In this document: positions 12,659-60,335 of the stretch, piece by piece
How positions within the stretch are numbered: position 1 is the stretch's first letter
Layout of the letters: the number at the start of each line of letters is the position of its first letter
From: Eukaryota sp. GEM-RC1
Lineage: Eukaryota
Assembly (NCBI GenBank): GCA_040285855.1
Contig: JAUFOQ010000006.1
Span: forward strand, 496,001 to 560,000
DNA length: 64,000 nt
Reading direction: 5' to 3'
The notes under the pieces: generated by a model
Databases searched by the model: none
The model's input: the letters and a program-made list of their open reading frames with translations, nothing else
Told to the model about the DNA's origin: nothing
Translations under genes and position numbers: made by a program

Positions 12659-14289
12659 TCATCTAAGTGGAGCAAACAAGCTGCGTATGAAGTTTCTGTA
12701 TCCAACAACTTGCACGTTACTATTAGCGGATCGAAACTGGTTCCTCAACTTTTCAATTCGAATTTTAGCAGTATTGGATTTATCATGCTGATCTTCAACT
12801 TCAACATGCAGAATTCCGTCTGAATCGATAGTCATGGATACCAGAGCTTTAGCTTCTTTGGCCGGCATTCTTGGAAGATTACTGATTCGGAATGATCCAA
12901 GAAGTGTGTTTAATGAGACAATGCTTGCATCACCCTGGTAGACATCAATACTTAGAACAGTCTGATTGTCCTCCGTCGTTAAGTAAGTTCCACTCTTATT
13001 GTTTGGCAACGGAGATTGGCTTGGAATAAGAACACTCATAGTGTTTACTTCAGCAAAGCGGGATTGAGACTTTACTTTAATGCCCAAGTTATGGGGAGTA
13101 ACTTCGTGCAGGATGTGGTGATAGTAGCTAGCAGCCCCCGCTGCAACACTTTCATCCGGATTTAGAGTCTTTCGCAACTTTCCTGGAAACTTTCGCTCTA
13201 AGTATTCTTGAACGATAAGAAGTCGAGACGAACCACCAACGAGTTGAACAAAATCAATGTCAGAAGTTTGAAGCTTCGTTAACTGAAGAACTTCATCAAT
13301 TACTGAGAGACATCTGGCAACATATGGTTCGCAAATGGCATTCAAACGGGACCTTGTAAGAGAATACTCAAGATCATATACTTTAGCTCCATCAACTACA
13401 TACGATTCAACTTCAATATCAGCCTTTTTTTGGGTTGTAAGAATTTTCTTTGCAGTTTCAGCAGCAATTCGGAGTTGTGCTAGCTTTTTCTTCGAGGGGG
13501 GAATAACATGTATGGTCAGCCTTCCAGTTCTTTTTTAACGTTGTCTACTATTGCTTGATCGATATTAGATCCACCAAGGTCAGTATTACCGTGAGTTCCT
13601 ATCACAGTCACATCATCTGCTCCGATTTTAACAATAGAAACGTCAAAAGTTCCACCTCCAAAGTCGAAAACAAGAACTTTCTTTCCTACAGTGTTCGGAT
13701 CTTCTTCCTTGAGAGAGAGTGCCGCAGCAGTAGGTTCATTGATTAGCGTAACTTCATGAAATCCTGCAAGTTGAGCTGCTCGTTTGGTGGCCTGGCGTTG
13801 ATCGTCATTGAAGTAGGCTGGAACAGTGATGACAGATTTAGTTACAGGAACTCCAAGAACTGATGTAGCATTGTTTTTGATGTGAGTTAGGATTTTGGCA
13901 CCGATTTCTTCTGGTTTGAACTTAGTTTGGTTTCTGTAGTTCACAACAAAAGCAGGATCATCATTCCCTCCATCAACGATGTTGAAGTCATAAGTTGAAA
14001 GAGCGTTTTGCACCACTTGATCTGTAAACCTTCTTCCAATGAAACGCTTTGCATCGAATACAACGTCCTCGGGATACTTTCCTCTTTTGTTATGAGCATT
14101 TAAGCCAACGTCAAAGTCTCTGCCTTTAAACCAAACCGCTGACGGAACAGTTTTAGTTCCAGAATTGTAATCGGTCAAAACTTCGGTGAGGAAAGGTCCG
14201 AGACGTCCATCAGGATTACGTTTTTGACGACGAATTGCAGCACAAGAGTTAGTAGTTCCCAAGTCGATTCCAAGAACAAAGTCAGACAT
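12659..14289 (-). CDS. Hsp70-family protein lacking helical lid and EEVD, copy 1
   Basis: VLGIDLGTTNSC, TVPAYFND.QRQATK.A, INEPTAAA, VFDFGGGTFDVS, LVGGSSR, NPDESVAAGAA; one indel in the A-run at ~13535. Confidence 0.9.
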
Positions 14290-14327
14290 GAGGAAGAATT
14301 TTAATCCATTTTTCATTTGCTCTCCCA

Positions 14328-14505
14328 ATGTTATATGTTGTTATCGATCTCGGATCCTTTACGATCACAGTTGCCGTACAGAAAGATTTAAAGCGAGATT
14401 GTTTGAGTGACTGCTCTCTCTGAAATGTTATTCTTCACGACTATGACCGATACGTTATCGACGAAGGTTTATTCAAAATAAAACAATATGCACGAAACTG
14501 TTTTG
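14328..14505 (+). pseudogene. Truncated 5' copy of the divergent Hsp70-like gene
   Basis: Matches the reverse complement of ~16580-16754; CGA>TGA stop at ~14421. Confidence 0.8.
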
Positions 14506-15200: not shown

Positions 15201-16754
15201 TTACTTTTTACTGGAAACATATTGAAAAGGGATAGTTTTCCAACGAATATGAAGTTCACACTGCGGTGTCTTATGATGAATAAAAGGAAGATCATTCAGC
15301 AATTTGATAGATCCTACAGCATGATACATCTCGGATGTATGAAACGATAACGCTAGACCATCCTCGACTACAAACTGTTGAGATCCAGCCCACGGAACAA
15401 ACCTGAACACACATTTTTTAGGACATGGAACAGAAGAAAATTCAAATTTACGACGACCATCAGGTGAAAAAACTGAGCATTCCAAAGTTAAATCGTTATT
15501 ACGCTTGGATAACAATGGAAACGTAACAATATCAACTGTTACTTCCAACTGAAATTGGTCAGCAAGAGATTGGTGAATCGATACCTCATCTAATTGCTGA
15601 ATATCTTGCTTCTCCTTTTGAAGTGATCCACTGGACTCCTTTTGAAGTGATGAACTTATAACATCCAGAGCTCCAAGTGCTACATCAGTTTTGGGATCCA
15701 ACGGTGTCTGTATAGATACATTAAACACAAGAGATGCAGCAGTTCTAACAGCCTCCAAACTAGCAATACCACCTACAGGAATAAGACGTTTGATGCGACG
15801 AGAACGATCCAACTTCGACTGAAATTCATACAGCTTTGACTGTAAAGCGTGGCAGAAGTCATGTAAAACAGTATTAGGGATTTCAAACTCAAAGTCAGAT
15901 AAATGTCCCACCAAATCATCCACAGTAACAGTGAATGGAACCTGACGTTTAGCTTTAGAACAAGCATTTAACAACTTCATATTAGAACGATGATTCATTT
16001 TCTCTCTTATATCAGGAGGGATTTGGGACAAACAATACTCAAACATCATTCTATCTAAATCTTCCGCTCCAAACCACCATTCTTGGGATTCGAGGTTAGC
16101 CCCTGTTTTGCTATCAAAGATTACCATTTTAGTGAGTAAGTGGCCAATATCAATTATACCAAAATTGTAAGATTTAGAAGATGGACGAACTTTGAAAAAG
16201 TATGCAGCAATGAGAGCATCGTCAACTGAAATGACTCGTTGTGACAACGGCATGCCACAGTTAGAAAAGGCTGTGCGCAACAGATCAACATGATTATTAT
16301 CTTGAAGTGATTTTGGTAAAACGATGGACACATCAAAATCGCCAGTCTCCAAATTCATCTCCAACTTCTGTTTCAGATGGGATATCAAAGGCATCAAGAG
16401 ATCCAGTTGCTTGACTTGGTCGCTTGACTCAGGATCTTCGGTCTTGGTGTGGACAGAGAAAACTAGATCACCATCCTCTTTGCGTTGAAAATTATTGCAC
16501 TGAGAAGAGCTTGAAGGGAGGGGTAACGAGGAGCTCCAAGGGAGGGAGGAAGAAGATAACAGATGAGTAACAGACAAGAAACAGTTTCGTGCATACTTTT
16601 CCATTTTGAATAAGCCTTCGTCGATAACGTATCGGTCATAGTCGTGAAGAATAACATTTCGGAGAGAGCAGTCACTCAAACAATCTCGCTTTAAATCTTT
16701 CTGTACGGCAACAGTGATCGTGAAGGATCCGAGATCGATAACAACTGTGAACAT
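15201..16754 (-). CDS. Highly divergent Hsp70/actin-fold ATPase-like protein (517 aa)
   Basis: VVIDLGS, GIIDIGH, FGAEDLDRMM, CSKAKR, PVGGIAS and DPKTDVALGA align with Hsp70 NBD motifs; C-terminus unrelated. Confidence 0.75.
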   Translation of the reverse strand: MFTVVIDLGSFTITVAVQKDLKRDCLSDCSLRNVILHDYDRYVIDEGLFKMEKYARNCFLSVTHLLSSSSLPWSSSLPLPSSSSQCNNFQRKEDGDLVFSVHTKTEDPESSDQVKQLDLLMPLISHLKQKLEMNLETGDFDVSIVLPKSLQDNNHVDLLRTAFSNCGMPLSQRVISVDDALIAAYFFKVRPSSKSYNFGIIDIGHLLTKMVIFDSKTGANLESQEWWFGAEDLDRMMFEYCLSQIPPDIREKMNHRSNMKLLNACSKAKRQVPFTVTVDDLVGHLSDFEFEIPNTVLHDFCHALQSKLYEFQSKLDRSRRIKRLIPVGGIASLEAVRTAASLVFNVSIQTPLDPKTDVALGALDVISSSLQKESSGSLQKEKQDIQQLDEVSIHQSLADQFQLEVTVDIVTFPLLSKRNNDLTLECSVFSPDGRRKFEFSSVPCPKKCVFRFVPWAGSQQFVVEDGLALSFHTSEMYHAVGSIKLLNDLPFIHHKTPQCELHIRWKTIPFQYVSSKK

Positions 16755-16792
16755 TGAGAGAGCAAATGAAAAATGGATTAAAATTCTTCCTC

Positions 16793-18422
16793 ATGTCTGA
16801 CTTTGTTCTTGGAATCGACTTGGGAACTACTAACTCTTGTGCTGCAATTCGCCGTCAGAAACGTAATCCTGATGGACGTTTCGGACCTTTCCTCACCGAA
16901 GTTTTGACCGATTACAATTCTGGAGCTAAAACTGTTCCGTCAGCGGTTTGGTTCAAAGGCAGAGACTTTGACGTTGGCTTAAATGCTCATAACAAAAGAG
17001 GAAAGTATCCCGAGGACGTTATATTCGATGCAAAGCGTTTCATTGGAAGAAGATTTACAGATCAAGTGGTGCAAAACGCTCTTTCTACTTATGACTTCAA
17101 CATCGTTGATGGAGGGAATGATGATCCTGCTTTTGTTGTGAACTACAGAAACCACACTAAGTTCAAGCCAGAAGAAATCGGTGCCAAAATCCTAACTCAC
17201 ATCAAAAACAATGCTACATCAGTTCTTGGAGTTCCCGTAACTAAATCTGTCATCACTGTTCCAGCTTACTTCAATGACGATCAACGCCAGGCAACCAAAC
17301 GAGCAGCTCAACTTGCAGGATTTCATGAAATTACGCTAATCAATGAACCTACTGCTGCGGCACTCTCTCTCAAGGAAGAAGATCCCAACACTGTAGGAAA
17401 GAAAGTTCTTGTTTTCGACTTTGGAGGTGGAACTTTTGATGTTTCTATTGTTAAAATAGGAGCAGATGATGTGACTGTGATAGGAACTCACGGTAATACT
17501 GACCTTGGTGGATCTCATATCGATCAAGCAATAGTAGACAACGTTAAAAAAAAACTGGAATGCTGACCAATCATGTTGTTCCCCATCGAAGAAAAAGCTA
17601 GCACAACTCCGAATTGCTGCTGAAACTGCAAAGAAAATTCTTACAACCCAAAAAACGGCTGATATTGAAGTTGAATCGTATGTAGTTGATGGAGCTAAAG
17701 TATATGATCTTGAGTATTCTCTTTCAAGGTCCCGTTTGAATGCCATTTGCGAACCATATGTTGCCAGATGTCTCTCAGTAATTGATGAAGTTCTTAAGTT
17801 GACGAAGCTTCAAACTTCTGACATTGATTTTGTTCAACTCGTTGGTGGTTCTTCTCGACTGCTTATCGTTCAAGAATACTTAGAGCGAAAGTTTCCAGGA
17901 AAGTTGCGAAAGACTCTAAATCCGGATGAAAGTGTTGCAGCGGGGGCTGCTAGCTACTATCACCACATCCTCCACGAAGTTACTCCTCATAACCTGGGCA
18001 TTGAGATAAGGTCTCGATCCCGCTTTGCTGAAGTAAATACTATGAGTGTTCTTATTCCAAGCCAATCTCCGTTACCAAACAATAAGAGTGGAACTTATTA
18101 TACTTCTGAGGACAATCAGACTGTTCTAAGTATTGATGTCTACCAGGGTGATGCAAGCATTGTCTCATTAAACACACTTCTTGGATCATTCCGAATCAGC
18201 AATCTTCCAAGAATGCCGGCCAGAGAAGCTAGAATTCTGGTGTCAATGACTATCGATTCAGACGGAATTCTGCATGTTGAGGTTGAAGATCAGCATGATA
18301 AATCCAATACTGCTAAAATTCGAATTGAAAAGTTGAGGAACCAGTTTCGATCTGCTAATAGTAACGTACAAGTTGTTGGATACAATCAAGTTAACAGTCA
18401 AAACTCATCACATGATGATTAA
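16793..18422 (+). CDS. Hsp70-family protein lacking helical lid and EEVD, copy 2
   Basis: Same motifs as copy 1; homopolymer indels at ~17550 and ~17583; ends VGYNQVNSQNSSHDD. Confidence 0.9.
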
Positions 18423-18904
18423 GCTTAGCTCTTTTCTTCATCTTGTAAATATCATCAATTCTTTTAAACTGGAAACTCTGATTTAACCAAAATAAATGGT
18501 TTTGTCAAATACAATCCTTTTTTATACTGTAGCGAAAAAGAATGCTTCAGTCCCTGTTCAGCTGTTACTGATTTAAACGAAGCATCCTATATTTCTGAAC
18601 GCATTTTGCAACTGCAGAGTTGTGCATTAAGTATAGCTCCGTTGTTAATATTGATGAAGATCTTGATTGTATGATTAAATTAAAGGCATTTAAGTACAGT
18701 TGTATCTAATGAATTCTAATGAAGCTTTATCTATAATCGTACCATATTTAATTTTGCATCGTTATTCCACACAGGAAACGGAGAGACGTTTCAAACAATA
18801 GTGTCATCTACTACGTACACTCCAGGAAACATTTAGTCTCACTGCAGATTCTGTGTTCGAAGACACGCGTGGACACGTTTGGACACGAACACGCAGACTT
18901 GTAG

Positions 18905-19055
18905 TGTTGAGATGGAATCACGATGTTGTTGTAATGGATCAGCCAATATCATTGTTTTCACAGTATCTCGCCGGAAAATCGTTATCCGTCGGGTTCGGAA
19001 TCCATTGTATGTGTTTCAATTATTCGAGAAAGCGATTTCAACTCGTACTGTTTAG
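18905..19055 (+). pseudogene. 3' fragment of the PH-like gene family
   Basis: Aligns with 1723-1879; starts a direct duplication running to ~20930. Confidence 0.75.
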
Positions 19056-19488
19056 TCGAAAATAATAATGCATCCTTAAACCATGTAGGACAAACTGGGT
19101 TGTTTAAGATCGCTACAATGTTCACTTATTTGAAAACTGGTTGAAAACCGTGAATTTTCTTTTAAGACTTTCTTTCCAGGTTTTACAGTAAATTGAACAT
19201 GGGGTCAATTTCATTGCATTTTTAGAAACAATTATTGTTAAAATCGACAGCATTCTTTATTTGTAACTGTTGAGTAAAAGACGTATTTATTGTGTATTCA
19301 CTAAGTTTTTGATGATGTAAGTCCACTAAATTCGTTGGATAACAGGGTTGTCATGCGCTATACGTGTTTTGATGTCAGAATTTTTCGAGCGAGATGTCAT
19401 TGTTTTCGAAAATCAAATTTCGTTGACAAAATACACTGAAACAAGAACATCAAAAATAATATATTTACATTTTTACAATTTTAATGTA

Positions 19489-20373
19489 CAGTAAACTCTC
19501 TCTAATTGCAACCCCTGTAATTGAAAACTCTCTGAAATTGCAACAAAAACCCATGCCACCGAGTAAAACAATACCAAATTGAAAATTGCAACAATTGCAA
19601 CAGCTTTTGAGACCTAATTGAAACATTGAAGTCAACATTACACTGTATTCTGGTTGTCGCATCTATAGCTAGCTGCCATATATTGATGTTAGTGTGAAGA
19701 AAGAGGAAGACGTTGTTGTGTTTCATAAATCCTACAGTAATCTTCTGGTTTTTCCCATCATCAACTTCAATGTCCCGTACACAGTACTGAACATCAACCA
19801 AAAGTCAAATACAAATGCATGCTCGTCAATATTTTGAAGATGAAGAAAATACAGAAACTGTAACTGCAGAACCTTTCCTCAAAAAAAAGAACTGAATCAT
19901 TGTTTGAGAATTTTCTCCAATCGTGTTGAAATACATTAGTTTAATGACTTCACTGCTCTAAATCAAGTGATGATAGATCTTCCAGTAGTGCTGGGGGAAA
20001 AGAGGGAGAAAAGATTGGTTCATTTTTTGTCACCCTTACGAAATATCAAAGAAACACTTACTACTAGTATGTACCATTGTGTAAAGAGTACTGTCGATAG
20101 TAAGTAAAAGTATTTTTGAAAAGCGGGATGATTAATTTGAGCCATGATAATAACATTTGTTTAAGTCCAAGCATTCATGGTAGTTTTATTGTGGATCAGA
20201 CTTGTTAATTTGCTCTTGCAGACTAATTAATAACATATTTGATGTTCTGGAATAAATATGGATGTTGTATTTAGTTTAGAGTAGCTTTATAGGAACTCTC
20301 TGTAATTGAAAACTCTCTGAAATTGAAACGAAACTCCATTCACCAAGTCGTTTCAATTAGAGAGAGTTTACTG
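19489..20373. mobile_element. Tc1/mariner (pogo-like) MITE
   Basis: Perfect 20-bp TIR CAGTAAACTCTCTCTAATTG; TA on both sides; absent from the paralogous site ~2360-2400. Confidence 0.92.
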
Positions 20374-21578
20374 TAGTTTAAATTTCAACTATCATTCATT
20401 GTCAAAATGTATTAACTGATAAATGAATCTAGATACATGTGCTCAAAGCAATCCTACAGTTGTATAATATTTAGTTAAAAGAGCTCATTACCATGTACTG
20501 TAGTTCTATTTCAAATTTTGGTAACAATGACCGAGCCATTTCAAAATTATTCAATGATTTTGACCGTTGGAGACTTCTAATAGACAGTTTGTTATTGGCT
20601 ATTGCGGTATAAATCGTATTTTCCCTCAATAGAAGCGTTTCCAAAGAGTTAAATCTATTCTAAGTTGACTAGAGACAATTCGCGAGTCGTTGGGCCAATT
20701 GCGGCTGTATTCAGTCGCTAACAGTCAGCAAATGTAAGAAACGACATTGATGAACTCGTAAAACCAGTCTTAGTTGAGTATTTTGTACTGATTCAGACTC
20801 TTATTTAGTACGAATGAATCAATTGTTTCAAATATATCAGTAATTCCTGGCAAATGCAGAAGTAATTAACATACAAATGTTTTCAAATAAATTTGTATAT
20901 ACTTCCTGATATAGTACCGTATTAAAAATGGCTGAAACGCAAATCACTGAATAATGTCAAAATAGTGACATGACTTTAGTTGATGCAATTATATTTATCG
21001 TCGGTTGAGCTTTTTTTATTAGGTCAGCCAACAATAGCGACACACAAAATGCGTTCTCAAAAGGACACTCTGCCCTTGCAAACTACTGAAACATGAAGGA
21101 TAGCAAAAAAATAGAAATACGGTAAATATATCTAGAACTAAGCATACCTAAAAAACTTATAAGAGTTCTTCATCAAATAGAAGATCAAATCAATTAATGT
21201 TCTACTACATGTTGAACATAATTCAGTGACAACCAGAGCCACAAAGGCACTTGCTAAAAGAATCTTACCCGTAGGGGATGTTCTAAACATAGTGAAAGGT
21301 TCTCTTGAAGAAAGAGTCTCAATTTTGTTGAATGATATTCTTGATCATTTACCCAATTTACTAGAACGACAGTCTCCTTCGATCCAACGTTTCCTTCAAT
21401 AAGTCGTGTGCTCTTAAATGACGCATTATCAAGGGTGGACTGTATAATGCAAATAATCATTCGATACAATACAAGAATTACCCGACACACGAGACTCGGT
21501 GTATTGTTTTTGCAAGGATTGGAACTCTGTGATGAAATTAATTAAAATTTCAACCCTCTTCTAAACCAACTTCAAGGA

Positions 21579-22020
21579 ATGAATTACGATAATCAAAACC
21601 ATCACTCTGAAGCAGTGTACAGTAGTATCCAGATTCCTGATGACAGTCTTTCCTTTGACGAGTCAATAATGGCCCCTTCTTCTAAGAACGAGAGCATTCT
21701 CTGGGAAGGACGTCCCAATGTCTCTATATTGGATTGGGTTTGTTCAGCTCTTGTTCTTACCGTAGCCATTGAACACCTATCGCTACATGTTAACAAACAA
21801 AATGTTTGTCGCCAAAACGGGATGGCTCACGCGATCTTACTCTGTTTTCCCCATTTCTCACATTGCTGGCGTTGAGATGGAAGTAGGTTGTTGCTGTAGT
21901 GGGTCAGCTAATATCATTGTTTTCACTGTATCTCGCCGAAAAATCGTTATTTATAAGGTTCGGAATCCGTTGCACGTTTTTAAATTATTCGAGAAAGCGA
22001 TCTCAACTCGTACTGTTTAG
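21579..22020 (+). CDS. Small PH-like (bPH_2-like) protein with one TM segment
   Basis: ESILWEGRP, hydrophobic stretch, YRY.LTNK, KTGWLTR, I..VRNP; frameshift near 21770. Confidence 0.55.
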
Positions 22021-22331
22021 TAATTCTCATTGTCTCAATTTTAAAGCAAACTTACAGTCATGGCAAAATAGAAGTGTTATTCAAAACAGAGTTCTTGATA
22101 TGAATACACACGTGTGTAACTTAACACATTCTAAAGTGGAATATCTATTGTCCGGAATTAATTTATACAAATTTCAAAATCATGTGCGAAATGACAGTGT
22201 CGTTTTCCGCACAGAGTGATAGTACTATAGCAAATTAACACACTTCAATGCAGTATGCAGATAGATGTAAATATATATTATAACACGATGATAATCATAC
22301 ATCTTCAACAACGAGTTTATTTACAAAAGCC

Positions 22332-23138
22332 TCACCGTAGAGTATGGCCCGTTCCTTTAAAAACCGACTCTGACTTAGACTTCTGTGGTCTTGCACTTTG
22401 AACATCATCTGAAGGCACTTCAATCTCTTCCCCGAATCCACGAATGTTATAACCAAACTGTCTAACCCAAACAGGATCATCATCCTTCACAACCTGCTTA
22501 GACGGAACTTCTGGCTCCTTATAACCAACAGGTGCTTCAAACTCTGTAACCATATCTGTTTCTATTAGAGACACTGCATTAGCTGGCTGCAGTTCCAGTA
22601 CTGCTAAATCAAATGTCTTGTTCCCAAACTTTATCCTGGGAACGTCTCCGACTGTGAATGTTGGGTATTGCCGAAGAAGATACTCTAACACTGCTTTTGG
22701 TTGGTCAATCTCAAGAAATTCTACTGACTGTGGTTGGAATTTGACATAGGTTCCCTTTGGTAGATTAACATATTCAACATGAACATGATCTTGAACGTCT
22801 AGAAGAAGGTTTTCCATCATCCAAAAGGGCATCAGACATACTCCCGGACTCGATGAGAACTCAGCTACTCCAGCATGTGTCTGATTTCCAGTCCTGGGGT
22901 TTGTAAGTCTGAACATGTAGGGATACTGTAGATCCATTTGACCAGAGGTGAGATTCAGCTAAAGAGACATACTGAGTTTGTGAAGAGCTTCTTCAGGTAG
23001 TATGATATTTCCGGTGAATTCATACTGTTCTTTTCCTGCAAAAGCCACAGGATTTGCATTATAAGTTGCACTAAAAGGAGCACCACGACGACGCTGATGA
23101 TGGGATCCGATCGAAATATGAGATAATCTGGGGTCCAT
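22332..23138 (-). CDS. UFD1: Ubiquitin fusion degradation protein 1, one 30-nt intron at 22943-22972
   Basis: GNIILPEEAL, YPYMFRL, THAGVAEF, PFWMMENL, LPKGTYVKFQP, EFEAPVGYKE, C-terminal FKGTGHTL SHP box. Confidence 0.93.
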
Positions 23139-29110: not shown

Positions 29111-29593
29111 TTATTATTATATGTATTTTTGTACCCTCCATCAATAAACTGATTTATTCTATTAAGCAATTTTAAAATTTGTTTGAATATTTGTGTTCAG
29201 AATGTGGTAAGAATTGTAACAGATTGTACTACCTGGACAGAAGAGTTTTTTGCCTTTCCAATTTTTAAGTACAGTATATGTATAGATATGTTGATTCCAT
29301 TTTGTTCAAGTTGTTTGGAGGCTACTACTTTTCAGAATTGGGCAGTTCGTTTGATAATTTGTTGTAATAGTGTGTATTAATTTTTTGTTGTTTTGTTGTG
29401 TGTTTTTCTCCGTACATAATTCCGTTTTTCAATCAAATGTTGCAAGTAGAGCTATTTATTTAATTGTATTAAAAGAAACATTCGTTAACATTTGACAACA
29501 AACAGACACTGTGTCCATTGGTCAATAATGGCGGTCAACAATAAGTTTTTTTTTGCAGTTTCCAAATTCGGACTCTTCATCACTTCATTCCAA

Positions 29594-30400
29594 ATGGAAG
29601 ACATAATCCTTGCTATAGTCTTGTTCTTTATAGGCGCCTTTGCATCATTTTTATCTGGTCTTCTTGGAGTTGGTGGCTCAGCTTATCTTTTACCTCTGAT
29701 TTTGTACGTTCCTCCCCTGTTTACCAATGTCACGATCGATATGTCAGATGCCACAGGTCTCAGTATTGGAGTTATTTGGCTTAGTAGTCTGAGCGCTTCC
29801 ATATCGCATCGCAAATCATTAGTTTCACCAAAAGTAAAGCCCCTTATTATTGCTCTAGCCATTCCTTGCAGTTTCTTTGCTTTCGCTGGAGGATTCTTCT
29901 CCCAATATGTGCCAGATCTATCTCTGAAAGCTCTATTCAGCGTTCTAGCGCTGTTTGGTGGACTTCTCATGTGCAAGAAACCCAAATCTGATGAATGGCA
30001 CCCTCTTTTGGATGATCTGCACTTCTCAATGGTTGGTGCTATCATCGCTGCTTCAATCGTTGGTATCTTCGCAGGATTAGTGGGTGCTGGTGGTGCTTTC
30101 CTTCTCAGTCCAATCTGTGTCTACATCCTGAATATCCCTACAAGAGTAGTCATTGCCTCTTCAATGGTCGTTGTATTTGCTTCTTCTACTGCTTCCTTAA
30201 TTGGAAAGGTTTTGGCCCACATGGTTGACTATGAAAGACTGCTGTGGTTGGCTCTGCCTACGATTCCTGTAGCTAAGTTAGGGGTTGTTGTTGGAAAGAA
30301 AGTAAAGGCTAAATCGTTAAGGAAGTTGTTGGCTGTGCTTACTCTTGGTATGGCTACTAAGATGGTTTATGAGGTGATTTATGAGTTCGAACATCGATAA
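29594..30400 (+). CDS. TauE/SafE (TSUP) sulfite exporter family protein
   Basis: Two repeats GLLGVGG / GLVGAGGAFLLSP, about 8 TM segments. Confidence 0.88.
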   Translation: MEDIILAIVLFFIGAFASFLSGLLGVGGSAYLLPLILYVPPLFTNVTIDMSDATGLSIGVIWLSSLSASISHRKSLVSPKVKPLIIALAIPCSFFAFAGGFFSQYVPDLSLKALFSVLALFGGLLMCKKPKSDEWHPLLDDLHFSMVGAIIAASIVGIFAGLVGAGGAFLLSPICVYILNIPTRVVIASSMVVVFASSTASLIGKVLAHMVDYERLLWLALPTIPVAKLGVVVGKKVKAKSLRKLLAVLTLGMATKMVYEVIYEFEHR

Positions 30401-36238: not shown

Positions 36239-37105
36239 TGACCTCTGTTAGACGTTTTCTTGATTTCATTTCATCATTTAGTTTATATTGGGTGACTTTA
36301 AGGATATCTCTGAGTAGTCAAGGGTTTGAGTCTGTTCTCCATCAATCAAAAGTTATTGATTGAATGATCAAGATTGAGACTATGTTCTCTTGTTCATTCT
36401 TATTAGAGTGCTGAATTAAATCTGTTAATCTATCCATTAGTGCGAGCATTGGTGTTCGAGGTGTATATTCATTTTGATTGGGGTTATTTTGTTCCACTGT
36501 TTGTTAAACAATCTTTATTTAACATCCATACTTTCTAGGCTTGGGACACAGGAAAGGACAAGAATGGCAAAACCCGGTTCGTTTTGTTCTTCTGTATTGT
36601 CTTTATTTTAAATTGTCTAATAAAAAAAGCGGATTTATGTGCGGAGAAAAACACACAACAAGAAAACAAATATTAATAGAGACTATTAAAACAAATTATC
36701 AAACGAACTACCCAATTCCGAAAGGTAGTTACCACCAAACAATTTGGACAAAATGGAATCAACAAATCTATACATAGACCTAAAAATCGAAACAATATTA
36801 TCTTTTCAGAAAATTGTTGCGTCTATTCTGAAGACTTATACAGTAGTTCTATTGTTTAGGTATTTTGATTCGACTTTGAACCGTCTTTTTGCAGTGAGTC
36901 ATGAACTTGAGATGATGTAGAGGTATTGGTATCTTTGATGATGATCTTGATTAATATGATTAAATTAATGGGGAACTGTACGATTCAGAGTTTGAACTCA
37001 ATCTTTGGCATACGCATTGATAAACAGTAATGTATTGACCACTACACTAGTTTGTCCACATCACAGTTAGGCAGTTACCAATTTACTTATCAAATTCTTT
37101 CTCTC

Positions 37106-37579
37106 ATGAAAATAGCAATTGGATGTGATCATGCTGCTGTAGATGCTCGAACACTGGCTATTTCTACTGTTGAACGCTTAGGACATTCTGTTATAGCAAT
37201 AACTGGACCCAAAACTTCTTCTGAAAAATACGACTATCCTGATGCAGCCCATGAAGTAGTTGTTGCTCTACGTGGTCTTACTTCCGATAATACACTTCCT
37301 GATCCTACTGAAGCTGTAGGTATTGTGGTATGTGGATCTGGAATTGGTATATGTATGGCCGCCAACAAACATTCTGGTGTTAGATGTGCTCTTTGTCATG
37401 ACCACTACAGCGCTAAAATGTGTAGAGCACACAACAATGCAAATATCTTAGCAATGGGGGCTCGGACAACTGGTCCAGACATCATTGTTGAAATGATTGA
37501 AACATTCTTATCCACACCATTTGAAGGAGGTCGTCACCAAGGTAGACTTGATAAGATTATGTCTTATCAAAATGCGTAG
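37106..37579 (+). CDS. rpiB: Ribose-5-phosphate isomerase B
   Basis: MKIAIGCDHA, DYPD, CGSGIGICMAANK, AHNNANILAMGAR, FEGGRH..R. Confidence 0.95.
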   Translation: MKIAIGCDHAAVDARTLAISTVERLGHSVIAITGPKTSSEKYDYPDAAHEVVVALRGLTSDNTLPDPTEAVGIVVCGSGIGICMAANKHSGVRCALCHDHYSAKMCRAHNNANILAMGARTTGPDIIVEMIETFLSTPFEGGRHQGRLDKIMSYQNA

Positions 37580-39790: not shown

Positions 39791-40189
39791 TAAAGTAAAA
39801 TATGAAATTGAAGCCCCTCCACGTAATAGTGGCCCCCACGCAATAGTGGCCGATTTTTGGATGGGGCTTATACGGAGAGGCCTCACCACGTAATAGTAGC
39901 CCCTGGTTATAAAGAATTTATAAGTATCGATCTTCGAGGATTTGGCCATATTGTGTGAGTTAGAATTGGGTGAGTCACATGTGGAAGTTGTTGATGAGTA
40001 ACTGTTTTTATTGTTTTTGACAGTGAATCCACTACATGCGACACAACTGAGACTTCAGAACATGATTTGGTAAGGGGCTTATAGAGAGAAGCCCCACCAC
40101 GTAATAGTAGCCCCCACGTAATAGTAGCCGATTTTAAGATGGGGCTTATACGGACAGGCCCCGGGGCTTCAATTTCATATTTTACTTTA
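39791..40189. mobile_element. 399-bp MITE
   Basis: Perfect 27-bp TIR TAAAGTAAAATATGAAATTGAAGCCCC; five CCACGYAATAGTRGCC units; terminal TA may be the TSD, and GAT also flanks both sides. Confidence 0.9.
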
Positions 40190-44959: not shown

Positions 44960-45507
44960 TTATACAACCAATCCAAACTCACTAAATCCTCGGACACTCA
45001 AGTTAAACTCGACACTAAGCCATCCGTTTGTTCTTGTTCGAACCATTTCCCGATGATCGTTTTTCCCAGCCCAAAGAGGATCTGCTGGGTGAGGAAGATA
45101 GCCTGTAGCCCATGCTGTGATACCTTCAATTACAGAGGTTGGAACTATTTGAAAAGAGGTATTGTTTGAATAGTTGAACCAGGTTTTAACGGTAACACAA
45201 TTGCACCGTATCCAACATGCACCTCACGGTCAAGCCAATCTTTTCCAAAGATCTGGAACACAAGTCTAGGCCAGCCATGAACAGAAGAAGATTCGAATGA
45301 AATAGAGAGAGGAATTGCCCATGTTGCATAGGAAGAATCTGTGTCATTGTAGTGAGATTTGGTACAAGTATGGGAAACTCCTTCTAATGTACCAGAATAT
45401 TGCCAGTTGGAACCAAAGAACCATTGGTACTTAAGAGTCAAATGGTCATGTGAGAAGACTGTCCCTGTTCGAATCTGACCAGAGACAGATATAGTGAAGC
45501 TGCTCAT
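44960..45507 (-). CDS. B9D2: B9 domain transition-zone protein
   Basis: GQI, EGVSHTC, WAIPL, HGWPRL, GYG..LPLKPG; indel near 45150; ends RGFSEFGLVV. Confidence 0.8.
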
Positions 45508-46936
45508 GAAAGGTTTGAGTGCTTCAAAATGTTACAAAGTCAAGTCCTGGGGTTTTCATTTGTTTGGTGTTCAAAAATTTTTCACCACCAACAGAATACT
45601 AGTATCATATGCCTCTAGCTTTTCCCTTATTAATAAACGGCTTTGATGTTCAGAAACTTTCTTGTCATGCATCCAAATCTGCAACTAGATTCTTCAACAC
45701 CCTTTATTACCATAAATAGCTACTTAATGCATGCCATAAACAAAAACACACCTCATATGTGGACAAGATCTACGACAATTGAAGACAAATTCATCAGAAG
45801 ATGTTCGTGTTCGGGCCGTTTCTGCCTTTTTGGTCATGTTCAGCAACACAAAAGCAAGATGCGGAACAGCATTTGGTCAGTCAATCCATTCTTAGCCGGT
45901 GGTTTTCTTCAACCTTCGAAGAAACAGTTGTGACGGCCACACAAGTCAGTGGAATATTGTCTGATGACGAAATTCAACAGCTTAGACACGTTGTGGAAGG
46001 AGATCCACATGTTTTGTGAGGCTTCGAAAAACATTTCCATCCCAAGTCTCTCTAGACTTCTTACAACTCTTTGTTACTCTCATAGAAAGTGTCAGTTTAA
46101 CATAGTCAGTGGTGATCAGGACCAGTAGTATTTTTAAACCATGTATTGTGACCTTATTTATGTAAATATGTTATTCTTTCCGTGCTTTATTACCACTAGA
46201 ACCCTACAGGTGGGAGATTGTTTAGTAACAATTGATTATAAACACATTTCTGGTAAATGATTGGAGGAGAACAACAAAGAGGTTCATGTGTGTAAGAAGG
46301 AGCAGAAACATGTAACGTGTGGATAATGAAGCAGAAGATATTGGAACAATGATGCTTGGTGTCTGTGAAGAAAATTCTTCAGCGGCAACAACATAACCAG
46401 AGAAATGCTGAACAAGAAGGACAATGCCAAGGTTTTCAAGATGTTGATATCAAGGTGTTTTACATTAAGAAAGCAAACATGTTATTGAGAAGACATGTTC
46501 AAGTGAAGACACTATTGACTTGAGAAGATCTACAACTTGATTAAGAAGTGCCTGGTAGGCATTAATAGTAGTTTCAGTCATCAGCAAGTGGCTTATTTAT
46601 GACAAATGCTTCAAGGATGTCCTTCAAAGGGCACAAAGTAATAAAGACACTCAAGGTACAACAATGTACAACAAGAAGAAGTGGGGGTGTAAGAAGAAGT
46701 TGGTACTACTGTAGTATTAGTATGAAGGAGAAAAAAATGAAATTGAACAATAAATCAAAACGAAACGGAATCCAATGGAGGGGAAGGTGATGACAATCAC
46801 ATTACCGACATTGACTATTCTGGTTTCATGGTTCCTCACAATGACTCTGAAGATACACGTGGTTCCTTGGCTTCACACCCAACTCTTGAAGGTGTGGACC
46901 CTTCTTTGACTTGACCTACACGGGAAAAGTGCACTA

Positions 46937-49900
46937 TTGCAAATGACTGCACTTTCCCAGTATGCTCCTCAAAACTACCTTGTGTCAATTGCTCTCTCCT
47001 TAATTGACTTAGAGACAGAGTCTATTGGTTCTTCGTTCTACTTTTCTTGGGACTGTTTTATTCCACCATCTCGTGACTCCCATTGCTACCACTTTGACAC
47101 TGAAGCAACAATGATACAGTTTTTCATTGATTTTTTAGTAGCCACGAAACCTCAATTATTGATTTTTTACAATCATGAATTTGAAATGTTTCCGTACTTG
47201 CTTGAACGATGTCAGCTTCTGGATTTGAAATCCAATTTTGAAATTTCAGATTACATACCTGACATTCCATTGTGGTTCCGTCGATGGTGTTCCCCAACAA
47301 AATTTGGTCCGTTTGTTGCCCTCAATCTTCAAAACGTGGTCAGGGATACATACAAAATTAAAGGAGGGAATGACCTCGAAAATGTCATCGAAAAGCTGCT
47401 AATGCCAAATTTTGTTATGGAGTTCTTGCTTTCTGAAGAAGAATTGAAAAACTTCTCAACAGAATTTAAAAGAGTTTTATCTTTAGACAAAATTCCTGAA
47501 AAAATGATGACCAAGTTTCTACTGTGTGCTAAAGACTCTAAACTGTCAGTATTGTTGTCATCTGCTGGTGGACAGACTGTATTGAAAAACCACATGTTTC
47601 TACAGGCCACTTATCTGATTCAATTATTTAAATTTTATAACACGACTGAGATTCAAAAACTGGTAGGAAGGCCTCCCATGAAAGTGGTGAAAATGGGGTT
47701 ACAAAAGGTGTTGAAAGATCAATCCCATATAGAGGTTATTGAGGATTGTGTGATCAGGACACATCAGTTAGTTGTTCGTGGTACTGGGTTCCTTAAAAGC
47801 TTCCTTTTACACGAATTTGAAGAAGCTTCAGATCCAATTTGTTCTATGAATGATGAGACAAATTGTGTTGTTCCAGAATCGATGGAATCTTATGACATTG
47901 ATGCTGTTCCCTACTACGAACTCCGTTCAAGACAACGAAATATTGTAAATTTAAAAAACTATCTAGGTCATCATGAATTACGTCAATTGCTGCGACGAAT
48001 GGGAATCAAAAAATCTCAGAAATTATTCAGAGATAACCCATGTTCTGATCTTGAGTTTATCTATCGAGAATCTGGTGATTTTCTGTCCAATCATTTTGTC
48101 CAAGATGCTGAGTTCATGTTTGTTCAATACTATTTTGACCATTACATTCCAATTTTGAACAATCTCAGTACTACTATGGGTGAAGAGGTTGTAACAATTC
48201 CTTCTTTGCAGTACCTTCCAAGAATTCTTGATTATGCTGCGAAACAAATCAAAACAAATTATGAAAACAACATGTCTCTTCATTTTCACGAACATGTTTT
48301 TCGATTGTACAATCTTGTTCTGGACAAAAAAAGAAGGCTGAAACTGCTGGGTAAATCTGCTCGTTTAAAATTGTTGAAGAAAATGAATTCTGTTCGAGAC
48401 ATGATTGTTAAAGGGGATTTTGAGAACATACCTTTTAAAGATACTGATGTCTTTCCAAATCCAACTTCAGAAGCTACACTTTACTTTCTAGCTTATCTTA
48501 AATTTAATCTTTTCCCTATCCTGACTTCCGACAAAAATCTTTACTATTGTCAGAAAGCAGATCCACTGACATACGTGAGCCATGCAATTTATTTGGCGAA
48601 AATCACCCAAAGTTTCTTTTTCAATGATGATGGTATTCCAGTTTCTGCTGCTAATCCTTTTCCATCCAGTAGGTCTTTGATTCCTAAAAGTATAAGACTG
48701 GACACAAACTGGATTAATGAGCGCTTTGTTCAATTAAAAGGATCTGCTGATCAGATGAGGAAAACAGTTTTTGCATCCGTAGTAACAGATGAAGTGTTAC
48801 AAGATAGTACTTCGTATGTTGTGAAGTGCTCATCTATCGTTACTGACGGAATATCATGTAGTGTACTCATGATAAGAAAAGACCTTGTAGACTTAGAAAC
48901 AGGTAATGAAAAAACAGGCTACTCTGCAGTTCAAAAATTAACTGAAGTAGAAAGTTATATTGATTGTCTATCAAAAAAGACATCGAAAAATTAAATTTAA
49001 AAAACCGAAGAATCATCGCAGTTGATCCTAATCAACATGATTTGATGTACTGTGTTTCTGAGAAAACAGTTGAAGAAAAAAATTTAGAAAAATTTATTGA
49101 GAACGGAGAAAATCCACTCAGAAAAAGAAAAACTTCAGAAGTAAGAAGTAAAAAAAAGAGGTGGTATCAAAAAAAGAAAAAAACAGTTAAAAAAATGGAG
49201 TACTTCAGATTTTCCCATGGTCAAGCTCAAGAAGAAAGATCAATGGAGTGTTTTTAGATACACTGCAGGGGAACGAGCCTTCGATCGCCGAGGCAAACAA
49301 TTCGAAAAAACAGAAAAGAAGAAAATTTTAGAATTCCAACCTCCAGGAATTGCTGCAAATGGAAAAGAAGTTCATGACTGGTTTTCCTCAGAAACTGCAG
49401 AAGGAGAACGCAAGTCATGCTTTAACTCAAAATTCACTGAGTATCTGGTCAAAAAGAGTTGTATAATGCTCTGATGTCTCCTCTGTATTCTCAACCTTGG
49501 TTCCGAAAGAAACGGTTTCTGCTCTACGGAAATAACCAGCGTTCTGAGAAGAACATGGCGGAGAGACTCAAATTGACCTTTGGTAGCCCATCCGAGACAG
49601 TGATTGCCTTTGGTGATTGGAGTGGCAAATCAACTGGAAGAAGAGGAAAGGCTCCAACTATTAAAGGGCTTGCCATGCGAACAATCCTGCGAAAACATGG
49701 TTTCCAAGTGTTCTTAACAGATGAATACAGAACAAGTAAGTGCTGCAGTGCCTGTGCTTCCAAGGGCATTGAAGGAGTGTGTTCGAATGTAGAAGAGGTC
49801 GACGTGAAATACAAACCGAAAGTATTACGAAACTTGGGGTATCAGAAAGCTAAATTGCGGAACAAAATCAGAAGGCACAATCGCCGCGATTCAGTCAACC

Positions 49901-50428
49901 GTAGAAGCTTTCCAGAAGAGTGGCAGCTATTGAAAGGGAATCTTCTTGAAGATGAAGAAGTAGAAAAAAAAGACTCCGTGGGGGTTAGTAAAGTGCAATC
50001 ATTGTGGGATGTTCTGGAACAGGGATTTAAACTCTGGTATCAACATTTACAGGATCGCTGAAGCAGCTATACGTGGTGAGAGCAGACCAATAATTCTTGA
50101 TAGATCGAAATATGAAAAAGATCATGATGAGGATTCAAGTTCTGGTCAAGCCAGAAAGCGAAGAAGCTCCCAAAACAAATGTGGGTTCTGTGGTGAAATC
50201 GGCCATACCAAACCAAAATGTCCCAAAAACACAGAACCAACGATAAGAAAGTGTGGCACTTGTCGAGAACCAGGACACACCAAAAAAAATTGTCCAAACA
50301 AGAAGAATGTTCCAGAGACGGACGCTGGAAGAAAGAGAACAATGAAGTCTGATGAAAGAAGAGGTCAGACATCCACAAGAATTAGCCCGCCTAACAAACG
50401 GTGTGGCAGCGCTGAAGCGTATCTGTGA
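46937..50428 (+). CDS. Fanzor1 RNA-guided endonuclease with N-terminal PolB exonuclease-like domain and two C-terminal CCHC knuckles (~1160 aa after correcting four A-run indels)
   Basis: RuvC-I IIAVDPN (D 49024); FRYT; FRKKRF..Y.NNQRSE; IAFGDWS; TDEYRTSKCCSAC (E 49723); GLVKCNHCGMFWNRDLNSGINI (D 50024); N-lobe motifs ILDY..IKTNYENN, PFP...IPKSIRLDT, TDGISCSVL. Confidence 0.92.
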
Positions 50429-50493
50429 AGTAAGTAGTGGAGAATCATTTGATCGAGGTGCAAATCTGGTCTTATCTAGATCTAGATCTAGAT
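50361..50493 (+). ncRNA. Candidate Fanzor omegaRNA (scaffold plus putative guide)
   Basis: Expected position overlapping the ORF 3' end; 9-bp stem 50361-50369/50465-50473 (3 G-U) enclosing CCACA/TGTGG, TTAG/CTAA and CGC-TGAA-GCG stems; by-eye fold only. Confidence 0.35.
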
Positions 50494-50554
50494 GCATTCA
50501 AAATGAAAACCACAGTCCCAACTTTTGTCCAACCAATTCAAACCATCTTCACTT

Positions 50555-52199
50555 ATGTCTGTTTCTCTCTTTGGAAGCCGTACTTCTGGCGCTGAATTAC
50601 GTAATCAAAATGGTAAGGTCTTCTTGTTCCCATCTCATTAAAGTCACTGCCGCACTTGCAATTGCTAACATCGTCAAAACTTCTCTCGGTCCTTCCGGTC
50701 TAGATAAAATGATCGTTGATAATGTTGGAGATGTCATCATCAGCAACGATGGTGCTACGATCCTTAAACAAATCGAAGTAGAACACCCAGCAGCAAAGAT
50801 CCTTGTTGAGCTTAGTGATATGCAAGACAAAGAAGTTGGAGATGGGACCACATCTGTCGTCATCATGGCTTCTGAACTTCTCAAAAGAGCTAACCAAATG
50901 ATCCAGCAAAAGATTCACCCAACCTCTATCATGGCAGGTTATCGGGCTGCTTGTCGCCGCGCCGTTCAATTCTGCTCCAAAAATGTTGCTGTCGCCGTCA
51001 CTGAAGACGATAAGGACATCCTCCGCAACATCGTCAGGACAACTCTCTCTTCCAAGATCGCAGGGGTTTCAATGGAACTCTTCCGAACCATCCTCGTTGA
51101 CGCTATTCTCTCCGTTAAAACCTACAACGAACGCGGTGAACCCCGATTCCCCGTAAAAGCCATCAACATCATGAAAGCCCACGGACGATCAGTCGCCGAC
51201 TCTACTTTAATCAAGGGTATTGCTCTTAACTGTGTACGTGCATCTGACGCTATGCCACGTCACTTGAAGGACATTAAGATTGCCTGCCTCGACTTTTCTC
51301 TCCAACGTTTGAGATTAAAGATGGGTATTCAAGTAATCATTGACGATCCTTCTAAACTCGAAGGTGTACGTGAACGCGAAGTTCAAATTGTGAAGGAACG
51401 CATTGAAAAGATCTTGGCCGCTGGAGCAAACGTTATTCTATGCACGGGTGGTATCGACGATACTTCAATGAAGTACTTCATTGAGTCTCAAGCCATTGCT
51501 ATCCGTCGTGTAACTAAGGAAGATCTTCGCAGAATTGCTAAAACTACGGGTGCTCAAGTAGTTGTTAACATGGCCGACATGGAAGGAGAAGAAGTCTTTG
51601 AGAAGGAATGGTTAGGATCAGCTAAGGAGATTGAGCAGGTTCGTATTGCTGATGATGAGTGTATCATGATCAGAGAGCCAGCTAAGTCTTCTGCTTGTTC
51701 CATCCTTTTACGTGGACCTAACGAGCAAATGTTGGACGAGATTGATCGTTCAGTGCATGATGCTTTGTGTGCTCTACGTCGAGCTTTGGAGTCTAAGAAG
51801 ATTGTTCCTGGGGGTGGGTGTGTTGAAGCTGCTCTGTCTATTCATTTAGAACAAATAGCTCATGAAATGAGTACTAGGGAGCAAGTGGCTGTCATGGAGT
51901 TTGCTGAGGCTCTTTTGGTTATTCCCAAGCAATTAGCTTCTAATTCTGCTTTGGATACCATTGAGCTTGTGGCTAAACTAAAGGCTGTTCATCATTTATC
52001 ACAAACCGATGAGTCTAAAGCTGATTATAGGTTTTATGGACTTGATTTGCGTAACGGAACTCTGAGAAACAATCTTGAACATGGAGTTTTGGAGCCCGCT
52101 TTGGTTAAGCTCAAGGCTTTACAATTTGCTACTGAAGCATGTATTTCTATTCTTCGCATAGATGATATGATTAAACTTGAAAAATTGGAACAACAGTAA
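50555..52199 (+). CDS. TCP1: Chaperonin CCT subunit alpha; 31-nt intron 50613-50643
   Basis: MSVSLFGSRTSGAELRNQN|VTAALAIANIVKTSLGPSGLDKM, EVGDGTTSVV, IHPTSIMAGY, FATEACISILRIDDMIKL. Confidence 0.97.
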
Positions 52200-58330: not shown

Positions 58331-58934
58331 TGACGAAATCTTAACATTTCAATAACGGTAATAAATTGTGAGGCTGACTAAATTGAACAATTTACCAATC
58401 AAGATTGACTATAAATTACCTGTTGCCTCTACTTTGTATCTATCCTCCAGACTTATATGTATGAGACATGTGGTAAGTCGAAGTGTATGGAATAATGGAA
58501 TTGGTTCCTATTAAAATCTGTGGCCTAAACGACCGCTTCTCTCTCTTCGAGTTCCTAGTTCTCTTGGCAACAGGTGTTTTACTAGACAGTTCTGAGCTAG
58601 ATACTCTAGTAAGACGGAAAAGCTTCCTAGGTTTGTGGACTTCACTATCAATACTTTCTAATTTAATAAACGACACAATAAACTTTGGTATTGGAAATAT
58701 CCTTGCTGGGAACTGATGAAGTGTCACCACGGTACCACAACACAGTACAGTGTTCACCATCGGGAGTATCAAAGCGGTCAAGTATATCAAGGACGATATG
58801 TTCTTGGGAATGACCTGATTCAAAAGCCTTATGGAAATTGGAGTCGTCGGGTAATTCTGAGAGACAGATCTTACATACGTAGACAGAAAGAAATTTCATA
58901 AAAATAAAATAAAAAAATATAAATTTATATTTCA

Positions 58935-59621
58935 ATTTTTTGTAATATTGGTCCAGCCGGTTTGAAGTTTTTCAGTGATTTTAGTCTTTCATGTCGTTCT
59001 AATGGCAAGGTGTTCAATAGCGCTGTATGGATTAATCGAATTATGTTCGCTCATTATAGAAGCATTGTCAAATATTTATGTTCTATATAATCGAAGTTGT
59101 ATAGGGACAATTCTCGTGTTGATGTGGAGGATTTAACTTCTTTCATTTTCTGAATTAGTATTTGTTAATTTATTGTTGTAAAAAACTCTTAATAAGTATT
59201 TATTTTACAGTGTCAGTGGATGTTTGTAAAAGACATCTTTGAAGAAGAACGCTTCGTCTAAAACTTCTCCTTTAGACATTTCTGAACAGGCCAAACAGAA
59301 TAAGTACAAGAAACCATTGATGGCTTCCAAAAAATGTAAAATATGTTGAGTACGAATTATGCCTCTTTGCTGTTTCCAATTTACGGACGTGTAGGAAAAA
59401 GTGCATTGAATTTCTTTAAAGACTTCGGAAACATCGTTAAAAATAGGATGAGCAAACGTTTTGATCATATTTTATGGTTGAGTCGGATCGTTTTTACTGT
59501 TTTTGAAACAGTTCCCCTAATCATCTACAAAGCTATATTAGCAGTAAGTTCCTTTTATGAGGACAAAGCTATTGTAAAGTTTGATAGCGACGGGTGTTGT
59601 TTTAATGATATCAAATTTTAG
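58935..59621 (+). mobile_element. Two tandem CRE-like LINE 3' fragments
   Basis: IGPAGLKFFSDF..WINRIMF and SEQAKQNKY..GRVGKSALNFFKDF..WLSRIVF match the CRE C-terminus. Confidence 0.7.
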
Positions 59622-60335
59622 TTGTTTGATCTATTACATTTATAATAAAGATGTCATTTTAGTCATTTATGCCAAAAAAATTATATTTATTCTCTTCTTT
59701 CTGTTGACATGACCAGTAATCGGATACCTGATTGACATTGATGAATGAAAATCAACTGACGTTACCAGGAATGGTCCAGCATAACTACCATGTAGCTTAA
59801 ATGTCTTTGTCTTCTGCAGTACGATATGACATATCTTGAACAGGTTACTTTTGTTGTTTTCACGAGGGGGCTTACTTGTTTGAGGAGTTTCTGCCTGTTA
59901 TCGCTTATTGGTTAGTCTTTTGAGTTATAGAGCGATATATTTTACGAGTTGAATCTCAGAGCGACTTTGTCCAAATGCATTTAGTATGTTTCCTGGAATT
60001 GTGTAACCAAAGAAACAAAATCCCAAAATATCAAACACTAAACCACATCATCCTAACAGAACTACACTGTAACATTGCTAGTAGTATCAATTATATCCAT
60101 ATTATTTTGTCTATGATGTTCCTTGATATCTTCTCCTTTTTCCTCACGCATAATAAATAAACACTATTATAACAAATTATCAAACTAACTACCTAATTCC
60201 GAAAAGTAGCTGCCTCCAAACAACTTGGACAAAATGGAATCATCGTGTCTTTACATCAGGGCTGTGAAAAAATATTAATATTTAAATAACGGCAATAAAT
60301 TATTCAGTATGTCTATTTTTAAGAACACAGGATAT

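Follow-up and report, generated by a model that had tools for sequence, protein, structure and literature searches.

A Fanzor1 nuclease gene with a decayed in-frame polymerase-type exonuclease domain in Eukaryota sp. GEM-RC1, and its exonuclease-Fanzor relatives

To our knowledge, known Fanzors are stand-alone nucleases of about 400–700 residues. The Fanzor1 branch is covered by three reference works (Bao and Jurka 2013, PMC3627910; Saito 2023, PMC10432273; Jiang 2023, PMC10530073). The Fanzor/TnpB signature is given as D-X(125,275)-[TS][TS]-XX-C4 zinc finger-X-RD (PMC3627910), and the Fanzor hallmark is a Gly or Pro at the canonical RuvC-II position with an alternative Glu about 45 residues further on (PMC10530073). 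For SpuFz1, about 80 bases separate the stop codon from the right end of the element (PMC10432273). Here, we describe a Fanzor1 gene on the forward strand of a 64,000-nucleotide stretch of Eukaryota sp. GEM-RC1 (assembly GCA_040285855.1, contig JAUFOQ010000006.1, positions 496,001–560,000), referred to as the window and numbered from its first base. The gene (46943..50428) is broken into five pieces; its domains, motifs, stop-free frame and protein family are direct observations. It carries the RuvC triad, a decayed exonuclease domain in the same frame and two zinc knuckles, and we consider it probable overall that its breaks are assembly errors and that it is the homing nuclease of a probable 5-kb element.

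The assignment to Fanzor1, proposed in the first-pass annotation, is supported by sequence and by fold. The catalytic motifs comprise D694 (IIAVDPN), G890 (IAFGDWS), E927 (TDEYRTS), TS930, two CxxC pairs and D1027 (NRD). The spacing from D694 to T930 is 235 residues, and both CxxC pairs and the RD are in place, as in the Fanzor/TnpB signature. In agreement with the Fanzor hallmark, G890 and E927 are 37 residues apart (35–37 in seven relatives) and align with their counterparts in PpFz1 and SpuFz1. The Gly at the canonical RuvC-II site, the relocated Glu and the zinc ribbon reported earlier were thus all recovered, the C4 ribbon containing a long insertion common to the intact relatives. In sequence comparisons, piece 4 matched PpFz1 (E 2e-9), SpuFz1 (3e-7) and GtFz1 (0.06), so that Fanzor1 accounted for all three matches. 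A structure comparison, also suggested in the first pass, gave the same answer: the seven best fold matches of the piece 1 model were all Fanzor1 chains (E 6e-5 to 1e-3; next match 0.85), although their template modeling scores by query were only 0.19–0.28, half of the model being unreliable. This model, built with 108 sequences, had a mean predicted local distance difference test score (pLDDT) of 57, with REC helices above 90 and the first 340 residues below 50. Neither Fanzor2 nor TnpB appeared among the three sequence matches and the seven best fold matches. A single-sequence model (pLDDT 37.5) was of no use.

The earlier reading of five consecutive forward-strand open reading frames as one protein of about 1160 residues holds. 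All pieces and quoted motifs are present, and reading by coordinates from the ATG at 46943, with X placed at each of the four breaks, yields 1160 residues without an internal stop. The start had been placed at 46937; this position is a TTG, and the start was set at the ATG at 46943 because TTG is an unlikely eukaryotic start. Piece 1 encodes the exonuclease domain (46943..47660) and, in the same open frame, the Fanzor1 WED/REC half (47661..48978), ending at an A6 run (48973-78). Piece 2 (48979..49157) contains the RuvC-I Asp694 (codon 49024-26) and ends at an A8 run (49150-57), while piece 3 (49157..49455) contains the FRYT motif and ends at an A5 run (49451-55). Piece 4 (49456..49971) encompasses Gly890 at the old RuvC-II site, the relocated Glu927 (49723-25), the TS and the first CxxC, and ends at an A8 run (49964-71). 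Piece 5 (49970..50428) carries the second CxxC, the RuvC-III Asp1027 (50024-26), a C-terminal tail with two CCHC zinc knuckles (50180-221 and 50252-293) and the stop codon. As had been claimed, D694, E927 and D1027 are all kept and the 1152 codons hold no stop.

All four breaks fall in A-runs, as previously reported. Runs of five or longer make up 5.8% of the gene, and the chance that four random breaks would all lie inside them is about 1e-5. The second break had been placed near 49190, about 35 bases off; its true site is 49150-57, where the relatives P0003 and P0008 read SKK[RK]GSLKK...DW...FRYTAG and align with piece 3 from 49157 on. The description of the breaks as single-base indels fits two of them, each fixed by adding one A, but the other two call for either one A removed or two added, and 'single-base' is therefore uncertain for these.

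The joining of the pieces by short introns or by programmed frameshifting was considered and rejected as very improbable. Introns of about 30 bases occur in this organism and a stretch of 26 bases with GT-AG borders runs up to the first break, but its excision would remove YIDCLSKK, which is conserved in relatives (YIDDL, YIDSL). Likewise, A-runs are slippery, but four shifts in both directions would leave almost no product, and the relatives are continuous.

Host genes in the window are broken in the same manner, which bears out the remark in the first-pass annotation that housekeeping genes carry the same indels. Breaks at short runs were observed in B9D1, an EFM4-like methyltransferase (twice), both HSP70 copies, both kinase copies and a DUF4457 gene, and TRM1 is also broken, its break site not being an obvious run. 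Counting by eye gave 10–12 breaks in 14 host genes (18.3 kb). At this rate, 1.9–2.3 breaks would be expected in the Fanzor gene by length and 3.7–4.4 by run count, with a probability of four or more between 0.13 and 0.64. An internal gauge of assembly error is provided by a RING-kinase-LRR inverted duplicate (6609-8716 and 10291-12394; 99% alike) with run-length changes inside the coding frame. Between its near-identical copies, 1831 columns contain four single-base indels, each of them in a run of 4–5, and just one of the 16 allele choices, with three losses and one gain, restores the full 609-codon frame. Because host genes and the kinase duplicate break alike, and at a matching rate, assembly error at the four sites is likely, though unproven. 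Furthermore, the lack of stops would have a probability of 0.03 at 2% neutral divergence and of 1e-4 at 5%.

Several observations weigh against this interpretation. Real slippage mutations also prefer A-runs, and the two breaks with the alternative repair (one A removed or two added) belong here as well. The protein keeps 51 of 75 conserved columns (one X-masked), below all 25 comparison proteins (53–75; the intact clade-mate P0005 has 54). The leader and the first exonuclease strand (ExoI) of its family are missing, and both looked-up pieces are sole members of their 90% clusters; there is therefore no sign of recent spread. These features, including the lowest conservation score of the compared set, would suit a very recently dead copy, in which at least one A-run change is a real slippage mutation and the 5' end is also truncated. 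The decayed DNA just upstream points the same way, and counted on this side is also that near-identical or repeated sequence may be poorly corrected. We nevertheless regard a recent death as unlikely, given the stop-free codons and the essential host genes that break alike, at a rate predicting four breaks. With assembly error preferred, the earlier wording 'probably intact' stands as a reasonable expectation, but 'functional' is weaker and only somewhat favoured, because the copy has no leader or first exonuclease strand, its ends are imperfect and no other protein shares its 90% cluster.

The N-terminal part of the protein (46943..47660, residues about 1–240) is a family-B DNA polymerase 3'-5' exonuclease domain that has degenerated; the Fanzor WED strand follows it, without a change of frame, from near residue 243. 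PF03104 matched piece 1 with E 1e-4 and its first 288 residues with E 4e-5, and all ten Atlas feature rows indicated PolB at 0.87, which was taken as a lead only. Exonucleases of the DEDDy (PolB) type are characterized by the motifs ExoI DxE, ExoII NxxxFD and ExoIII YxxxD. The active signature is absent from the window copy, which starts one strand past ExoI, reads YNHEFEM at ExoII with Met for the Asp, and is not alignable at ExoIII; no ExoI strand or leader was found upstream of the gene. Judged by these residues, the exonuclease of the window copy is dead, because it begins after ExoI and has Met for the ExoII Asp, and the domain can only be structural or DNA-binding. The fold was not confirmed by the 108-sequence model, whose exonuclease part scored below pLDDT 50. 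Among related proteins, exonuclease alignments gave E 4e-4 (P0005) and 2e-5 (P0023) to yeast Pol delta, and a profile E of 1e-9 to archaeal PolB. Word-index searches with P0005 recovered P0005 and P0110 and nothing further (2 of 4164 and 2 of 1918 candidates), and did not reveal the exonuclease donor.

The relatives of this gene form a family. The 21 best relatives of piece 1 (E up to 1e-10; best 21 of 88 matches) are named NCBI proteins that all belong to three skoliomonad-type records, namely Eukaryota sp. GEM-RC1 (17), TZLM3-RCL (2) and TZLM1-RC (2). We take these records to be the skoliomonad metamonads of bioRxiv 10.1101/2023.05.03.539051, a mapping of names that we infer; the assemblies of that study combine Nanopore reads with Illumina correction. 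The exonuclease part was matched by nine of the 88, all of them in skoliomonad-type records. A tree built from the RuvC half (33 rows having all three motifs and more than 450 residues, with no outgroup and no Fanzor2) places the window copy and eight RCL-record rows in one clade with support 100/99.

Six unbroken relatives of 1394–1494 residues (P0005, P0091, P0110 and P0115-P0117) share the exonuclease-Fanzor order and contain GDVEANPGP near the N-terminus, FDVET, GYNCDKFD, YC[VL]ND and the RuvC triad. All three exonuclease motifs (FDVET, GYNCDKFD, YC[VLA]ND) are present in 7 of the 23 tabulated exonuclease-bearing proteins, P0093 joining these six. The ExoII of the relatives is backed by alignment to solved polymerases, and ExoI and ExoIII by motif only; on this basis, the exonuclease in the intact relatives looks intact. 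The relatives were compared as gene models and protein records rather than as DNA. In the GEM-RC1 record, the copies are fragments, several ending in lysine-rich stretches, and the exonuclease acids are lost.

A 2A-like motif was identified in P0005, P0016, P0020, P0091, P0100, P0101, P0110 and P0114-P0117, the motif alone being no proof of ribosome skipping. In P0016, P0020, P0100 and P0101, a protease comes after it that resembles SENP8 most closely and retains His and Cys (PF02902 E 2e-4; SENP8 E 0.003), and P0101 spans the 2A motif, the protease, the exonuclease and the Fanzor start. In P0020 (KAL0245310.1), the 2A motif precedes two Ulp1-like domains in tandem, of which the first has the catalytic Cys and the second Ser. 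No leader, 2A motif or protease was detected upstream of the gene in the window, where the 2A motif is absent from all six frames.

None of 160 viral and metagenome Fanzor loci (96 complete frames, none above 700 residues) contained an exonuclease, knuckle or 2A motif. On viral contigs, no close relative of P0005 was found and the exonuclease alignment matched none of 43 stretches. The literature on Fanzor with exonuclease, fusion, metamonad, Ulp1, 2A or knuckles, as far as its accessible parts extend, yielded no report of this architecture. The word 'exonuclease' was not found in the available text of PMC10530073 (supplements aside; its figure S1B lists extra Fanzor domains and may bear on this) or PMC10711439, nor in the main-text portions of PMC10432273 and PMC13565253 (supplements aside), and neither 'protease' nor 'fused' was found in the available part of PMC3627910. 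The family, a cutter fused to a DNA-polymerase proofreading domain, is apparently undescribed. The exonuclease domain, the CCHC knuckles, the protein family and the probable element ends had been missed in the first pass, and they are most of what is of interest here.

The gene lies in what is probably a 5-kb inverted-repeat element between the host genes B9D1 (44960..45507, reverse strand; B9-C2 domain, split at a short A-run) and TCP1/CCT chaperonin (50555..52199, forward strand). The candidate left end (45544..45561, +) consists of a GTCC flank (45544-47) and a 14-base inverted repeat starting TG (45548-61), and the candidate right end (50501..50518, +) of the 14-base repeat ending CA (50501-14) and GTCC (50515-18). 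The arms match at 13 of 14 bases, and a 15-base motif is exact at only these two places in the 64 kb. The repeat together with a 4-base flank arose in 1 of 2000 shuffles, by criteria set after the sequence had been seen. Telling against these ends, the repeat alone arises in 98 of 2000 shuffles and the flank criterion is post hoc; the GTCC flank is unfit for an IS630/Tc1 transposase, for which TA is expected; and each arm sits about 40 bases from the ATG of a head-to-head host gene, so that the arms are possibly promoter motifs. Some 20 further host starts showed no such motif upstream, which weakens the promoter reading without removing it. Looser alternative ends have an extension of about 27 bases, with agreement at 18 of 26 compared positions and a left start near 45535 after TA.

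The left 1.4 kb of the element is riddled with stops and includes a possible decayed remnant of an IS630/Tc1-type transposase (45764..46089, forward strand) with stops and frame changes. A frameshift-aware alignment to a bacterial IS630 profile (64 pieces) scored 29.0 bits at 45767-45902, within the first helix-turn-helix (45764-45950); the best of 90 window controls scored 22.6 and none of 100 shuffles reached 29.0. The second helix-turn-helix (45988-46089) lies in colinear order but does not reach significance, and the remnant showed no catalytic domain. Furthermore, and against the assignment, a 34-member profile of giant-virus and metagenome transposases gave no match (32 of 60 shuffles as good). 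No transposase family was recovered in Pfam (only HTH_ABP1_N, E 0.006–0.05) or NCBIfam, plasmid searches returned nothing meaningful, and plain hmmsearch gave E above 3. A dead transposase is about an even call for this remnant; the element as a whole is probably immobile.

Downstream of the gene, an omega-RNA is predicted at 50429..50533 (forward strand), with a scaffold covering the 86 bases from stop codon to candidate right end and then a guide of about 15 bases from the TCP1 upstream flank. In PMC13565253, the left duplication is part of the target-adjacent motif and the right duplication part of the scaffold; by this rule, the guide would begin at 50519. The segment 50429-50518 folds into a closed stem with two inner hairpins and an unpaired flank (z -1.83; 8 of 200 shuffles as stable). 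This fold is modestly stable and boundary-dependent, which counts against the prediction: three other boundaries gave z -0.4 to -0.9. Sliding folds over the region were unremarkable, and no relevant Rfam match was found for it. A perfect 20-base palindrome of three TCTAGA units (50474-50493) lies within the predicted RNA.

Under the homing model and end geometry of PMC13565253 and PMC10432273, the omega-RNA would derive from the 86 bases that follow the stop and extend about 15 bases into the TCP1 flank. The complex would cut chromosomes lacking the insertion, where the target-adjacent motif is predicted to end in GTCC, or in TA if the alternative ends apply, and repair from the filled copy would restore the element. 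Homing through repair would thus keep the Fanzor frame open under selection after decay of the transposase. A rather improbable alternative is a domesticated single-copy host gene that cuts invading DNA, or binds the B9D1-TCP1 promoter region through guide or knuckles. Such a role would agree with an open frame beside a decayed stretch and between two housekeeping promoters, with the imperfect ends and lack of near-identical copies, and with a nearest listed relative 73% identical over 100 residues. However, intact Fanzor frames are known in old non-autonomous elements that need no host role (CMe-1A, PMC3627910), the RuvC triad is intact, unlike in nuclease-dead repressors, and relatives of 50%–90% identity are possibly hidden in the query's own cluster. 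Homing remains the preferred role. In the intact relatives, a 2A-like skip would separate a short leader from the exonuclease-Fanzor. The most likely task of the exonuclease would be to shorten 3' DNA ends, at the cut or the displaced strand, with RNA-guide trimming as a second possibility. More tentatively, skoliomonads may carry multi-copy Fanzor1 polyproteins with a working exonuclease that processes their own cuts, in the order leader, 2A skip, optional SENP8-like protease, PolB 3'-5' exonuclease, Fanzor and optional zinc knuckles, the window copy being an old, immobilised member selected to stay open.

The window belongs to a compact, intron-poor flagellated eukaryote, with host genes including TCP1, B9D1, HSP70, UFD1, TRM1, OST48 and the RING-kinase-LRR gene. 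The 31-base GT-AG intron of TCP1 (50613-50643) offers no explanation of the Fanzor breaks, and an apparent UFD1 intron (about 22943-22972, reverse strand) ends in TG rather than AG, an error or a non-canonical site. The HSP70 genes form an inverted pair (12659-14503 and 16579-18422; 96%), both split near the same A- and C-runs, and a 517-residue frame between them has weak actin-like ATPase/HSP70 matches. Several repeats were also observed: a dispersed family, 80–95% alike (1433-3119, 18198-22021 and 58930-59113), possibly a mobile element, with no Pfam match in the scanned frames; a 400-base element resembling a miniature inverted-repeat transposable element (39791-40189), with perfect 27-base inverted ends and internal tandem repeats; and a 105–155-base repeat, about 87% alike (29274-29429, 36625-36779 and 60152-60256), which lies upstream of both TauE and RpiB and occurs again at 60.2 kb. 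The TauE sulfite exporter (29492-30400) and RpiB isomerase (37100-37579) are bacteria-common families within a protist gene cluster.

The window gene alone adds one member to Fanzor1; the novelty is the exonuclease fusion family with its 2A motif and protease cargo. A natural Fanzor-exonuclease fusion whose catalytic residues persist in at least six unbroken copies would be a test case for whether homing by Fanzor includes end processing, and would parallel, in nature, the engineered nuclease-exonuclease editors. With the 2A-like motif and the SENP8/Ulp1-like protease, the Fanzor is seen as a polyprotein core gathering cargo, as transposases do. Since copies are mostly fragmented in one relative's record, such genes are easily missed by frameshift-blind surveys. 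The best proteins for testing are the intact relatives KAL0225525.1 and KAL0224747.1, rather than the window copy.

Among known systems, family-B DNA polymerases (Pol delta, archaeal PolB) resemble the N-terminal domain in that the ExoII region aligns, but here there is no polymerase domain, an acidic loop follows ExoI, and catalytic acids are kept only in RCL-record copies. Class A 2A peptides, GD(V/I)ExNPGP, occur near the N-terminus in 2A-bearing non-LTR (long terminal repeat) retrotransposons (PMC3708506; further 2A and Ginger background in PMC12338488, PMC10045372 and PMC6338049). The relatives similarly have this motif near the N-terminus of a mobile-element protein, and their Ulp1-type protease recalls the cargo of Ulp1-bearing Ginger1/Mutator transposases (PMC2836005). 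In contrast to both, it is a Fanzor that serves as the carrier, its frame includes neither a reverse transcriptase nor an integrase, and the window copy is without 2A and protease. Ginger itself has TGTNR ends, repeats of 40–270 bases and a Gypsy-like integrase (PMC2836005); the probable element resembles it in its candidate TG..CA ends and 4-base flank repeat, but was rejected as a Ginger transposon, having ends TGGGG and TGTGG, a 14-base repeat and no integrase family match.

The nearest relatives by sequence outside the skoliomonads are Fanzor1 proteins of giant-virus Mariner/IS630-Fanzor1 elements (PGv-1 type, PMC3627910). In 57 of the 160 giant-virus and metagenome Fanzor1 loci (L164-L323, e.g. 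L165:763-5611), an IS630/Mariner-like transposase lies near the Fanzor, mostly upstream and on the same strand. Many of these loci share ends of about 30 bases starting TACACC, which, where measured, lie 44–74 bases past the Fanzor stop. The additional enzymes of such elements sit in genes of their own, and the TACACC ends are unlike the ends found here. With SpuFz1, GtFz1 and PpFz1, the window gene shares the RuvC Asp, the Gly at the old site, the relocated Glu and the TS-C4-RD arrangement, the REC-WED fold, a location within a probable inverted-repeat element and a similar distance from stop to candidate right end (86 bases, against about 80 in SpuFz1; PMC10432273). It differs in size (about 1160 residues, 1394–1494 in relatives, against at most 700 in the 96 complete viral and metagenome frames) and in its zinc ribbon (about 95 residues from TS to RD, against 44–51 in five short relatives). 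Compared with known Fanzor1 proteins, it further carries an N-terminal PolB exonuclease domain and C-terminal CCHC knuckles, to which the relatives add a 2A-like leader and a protease.

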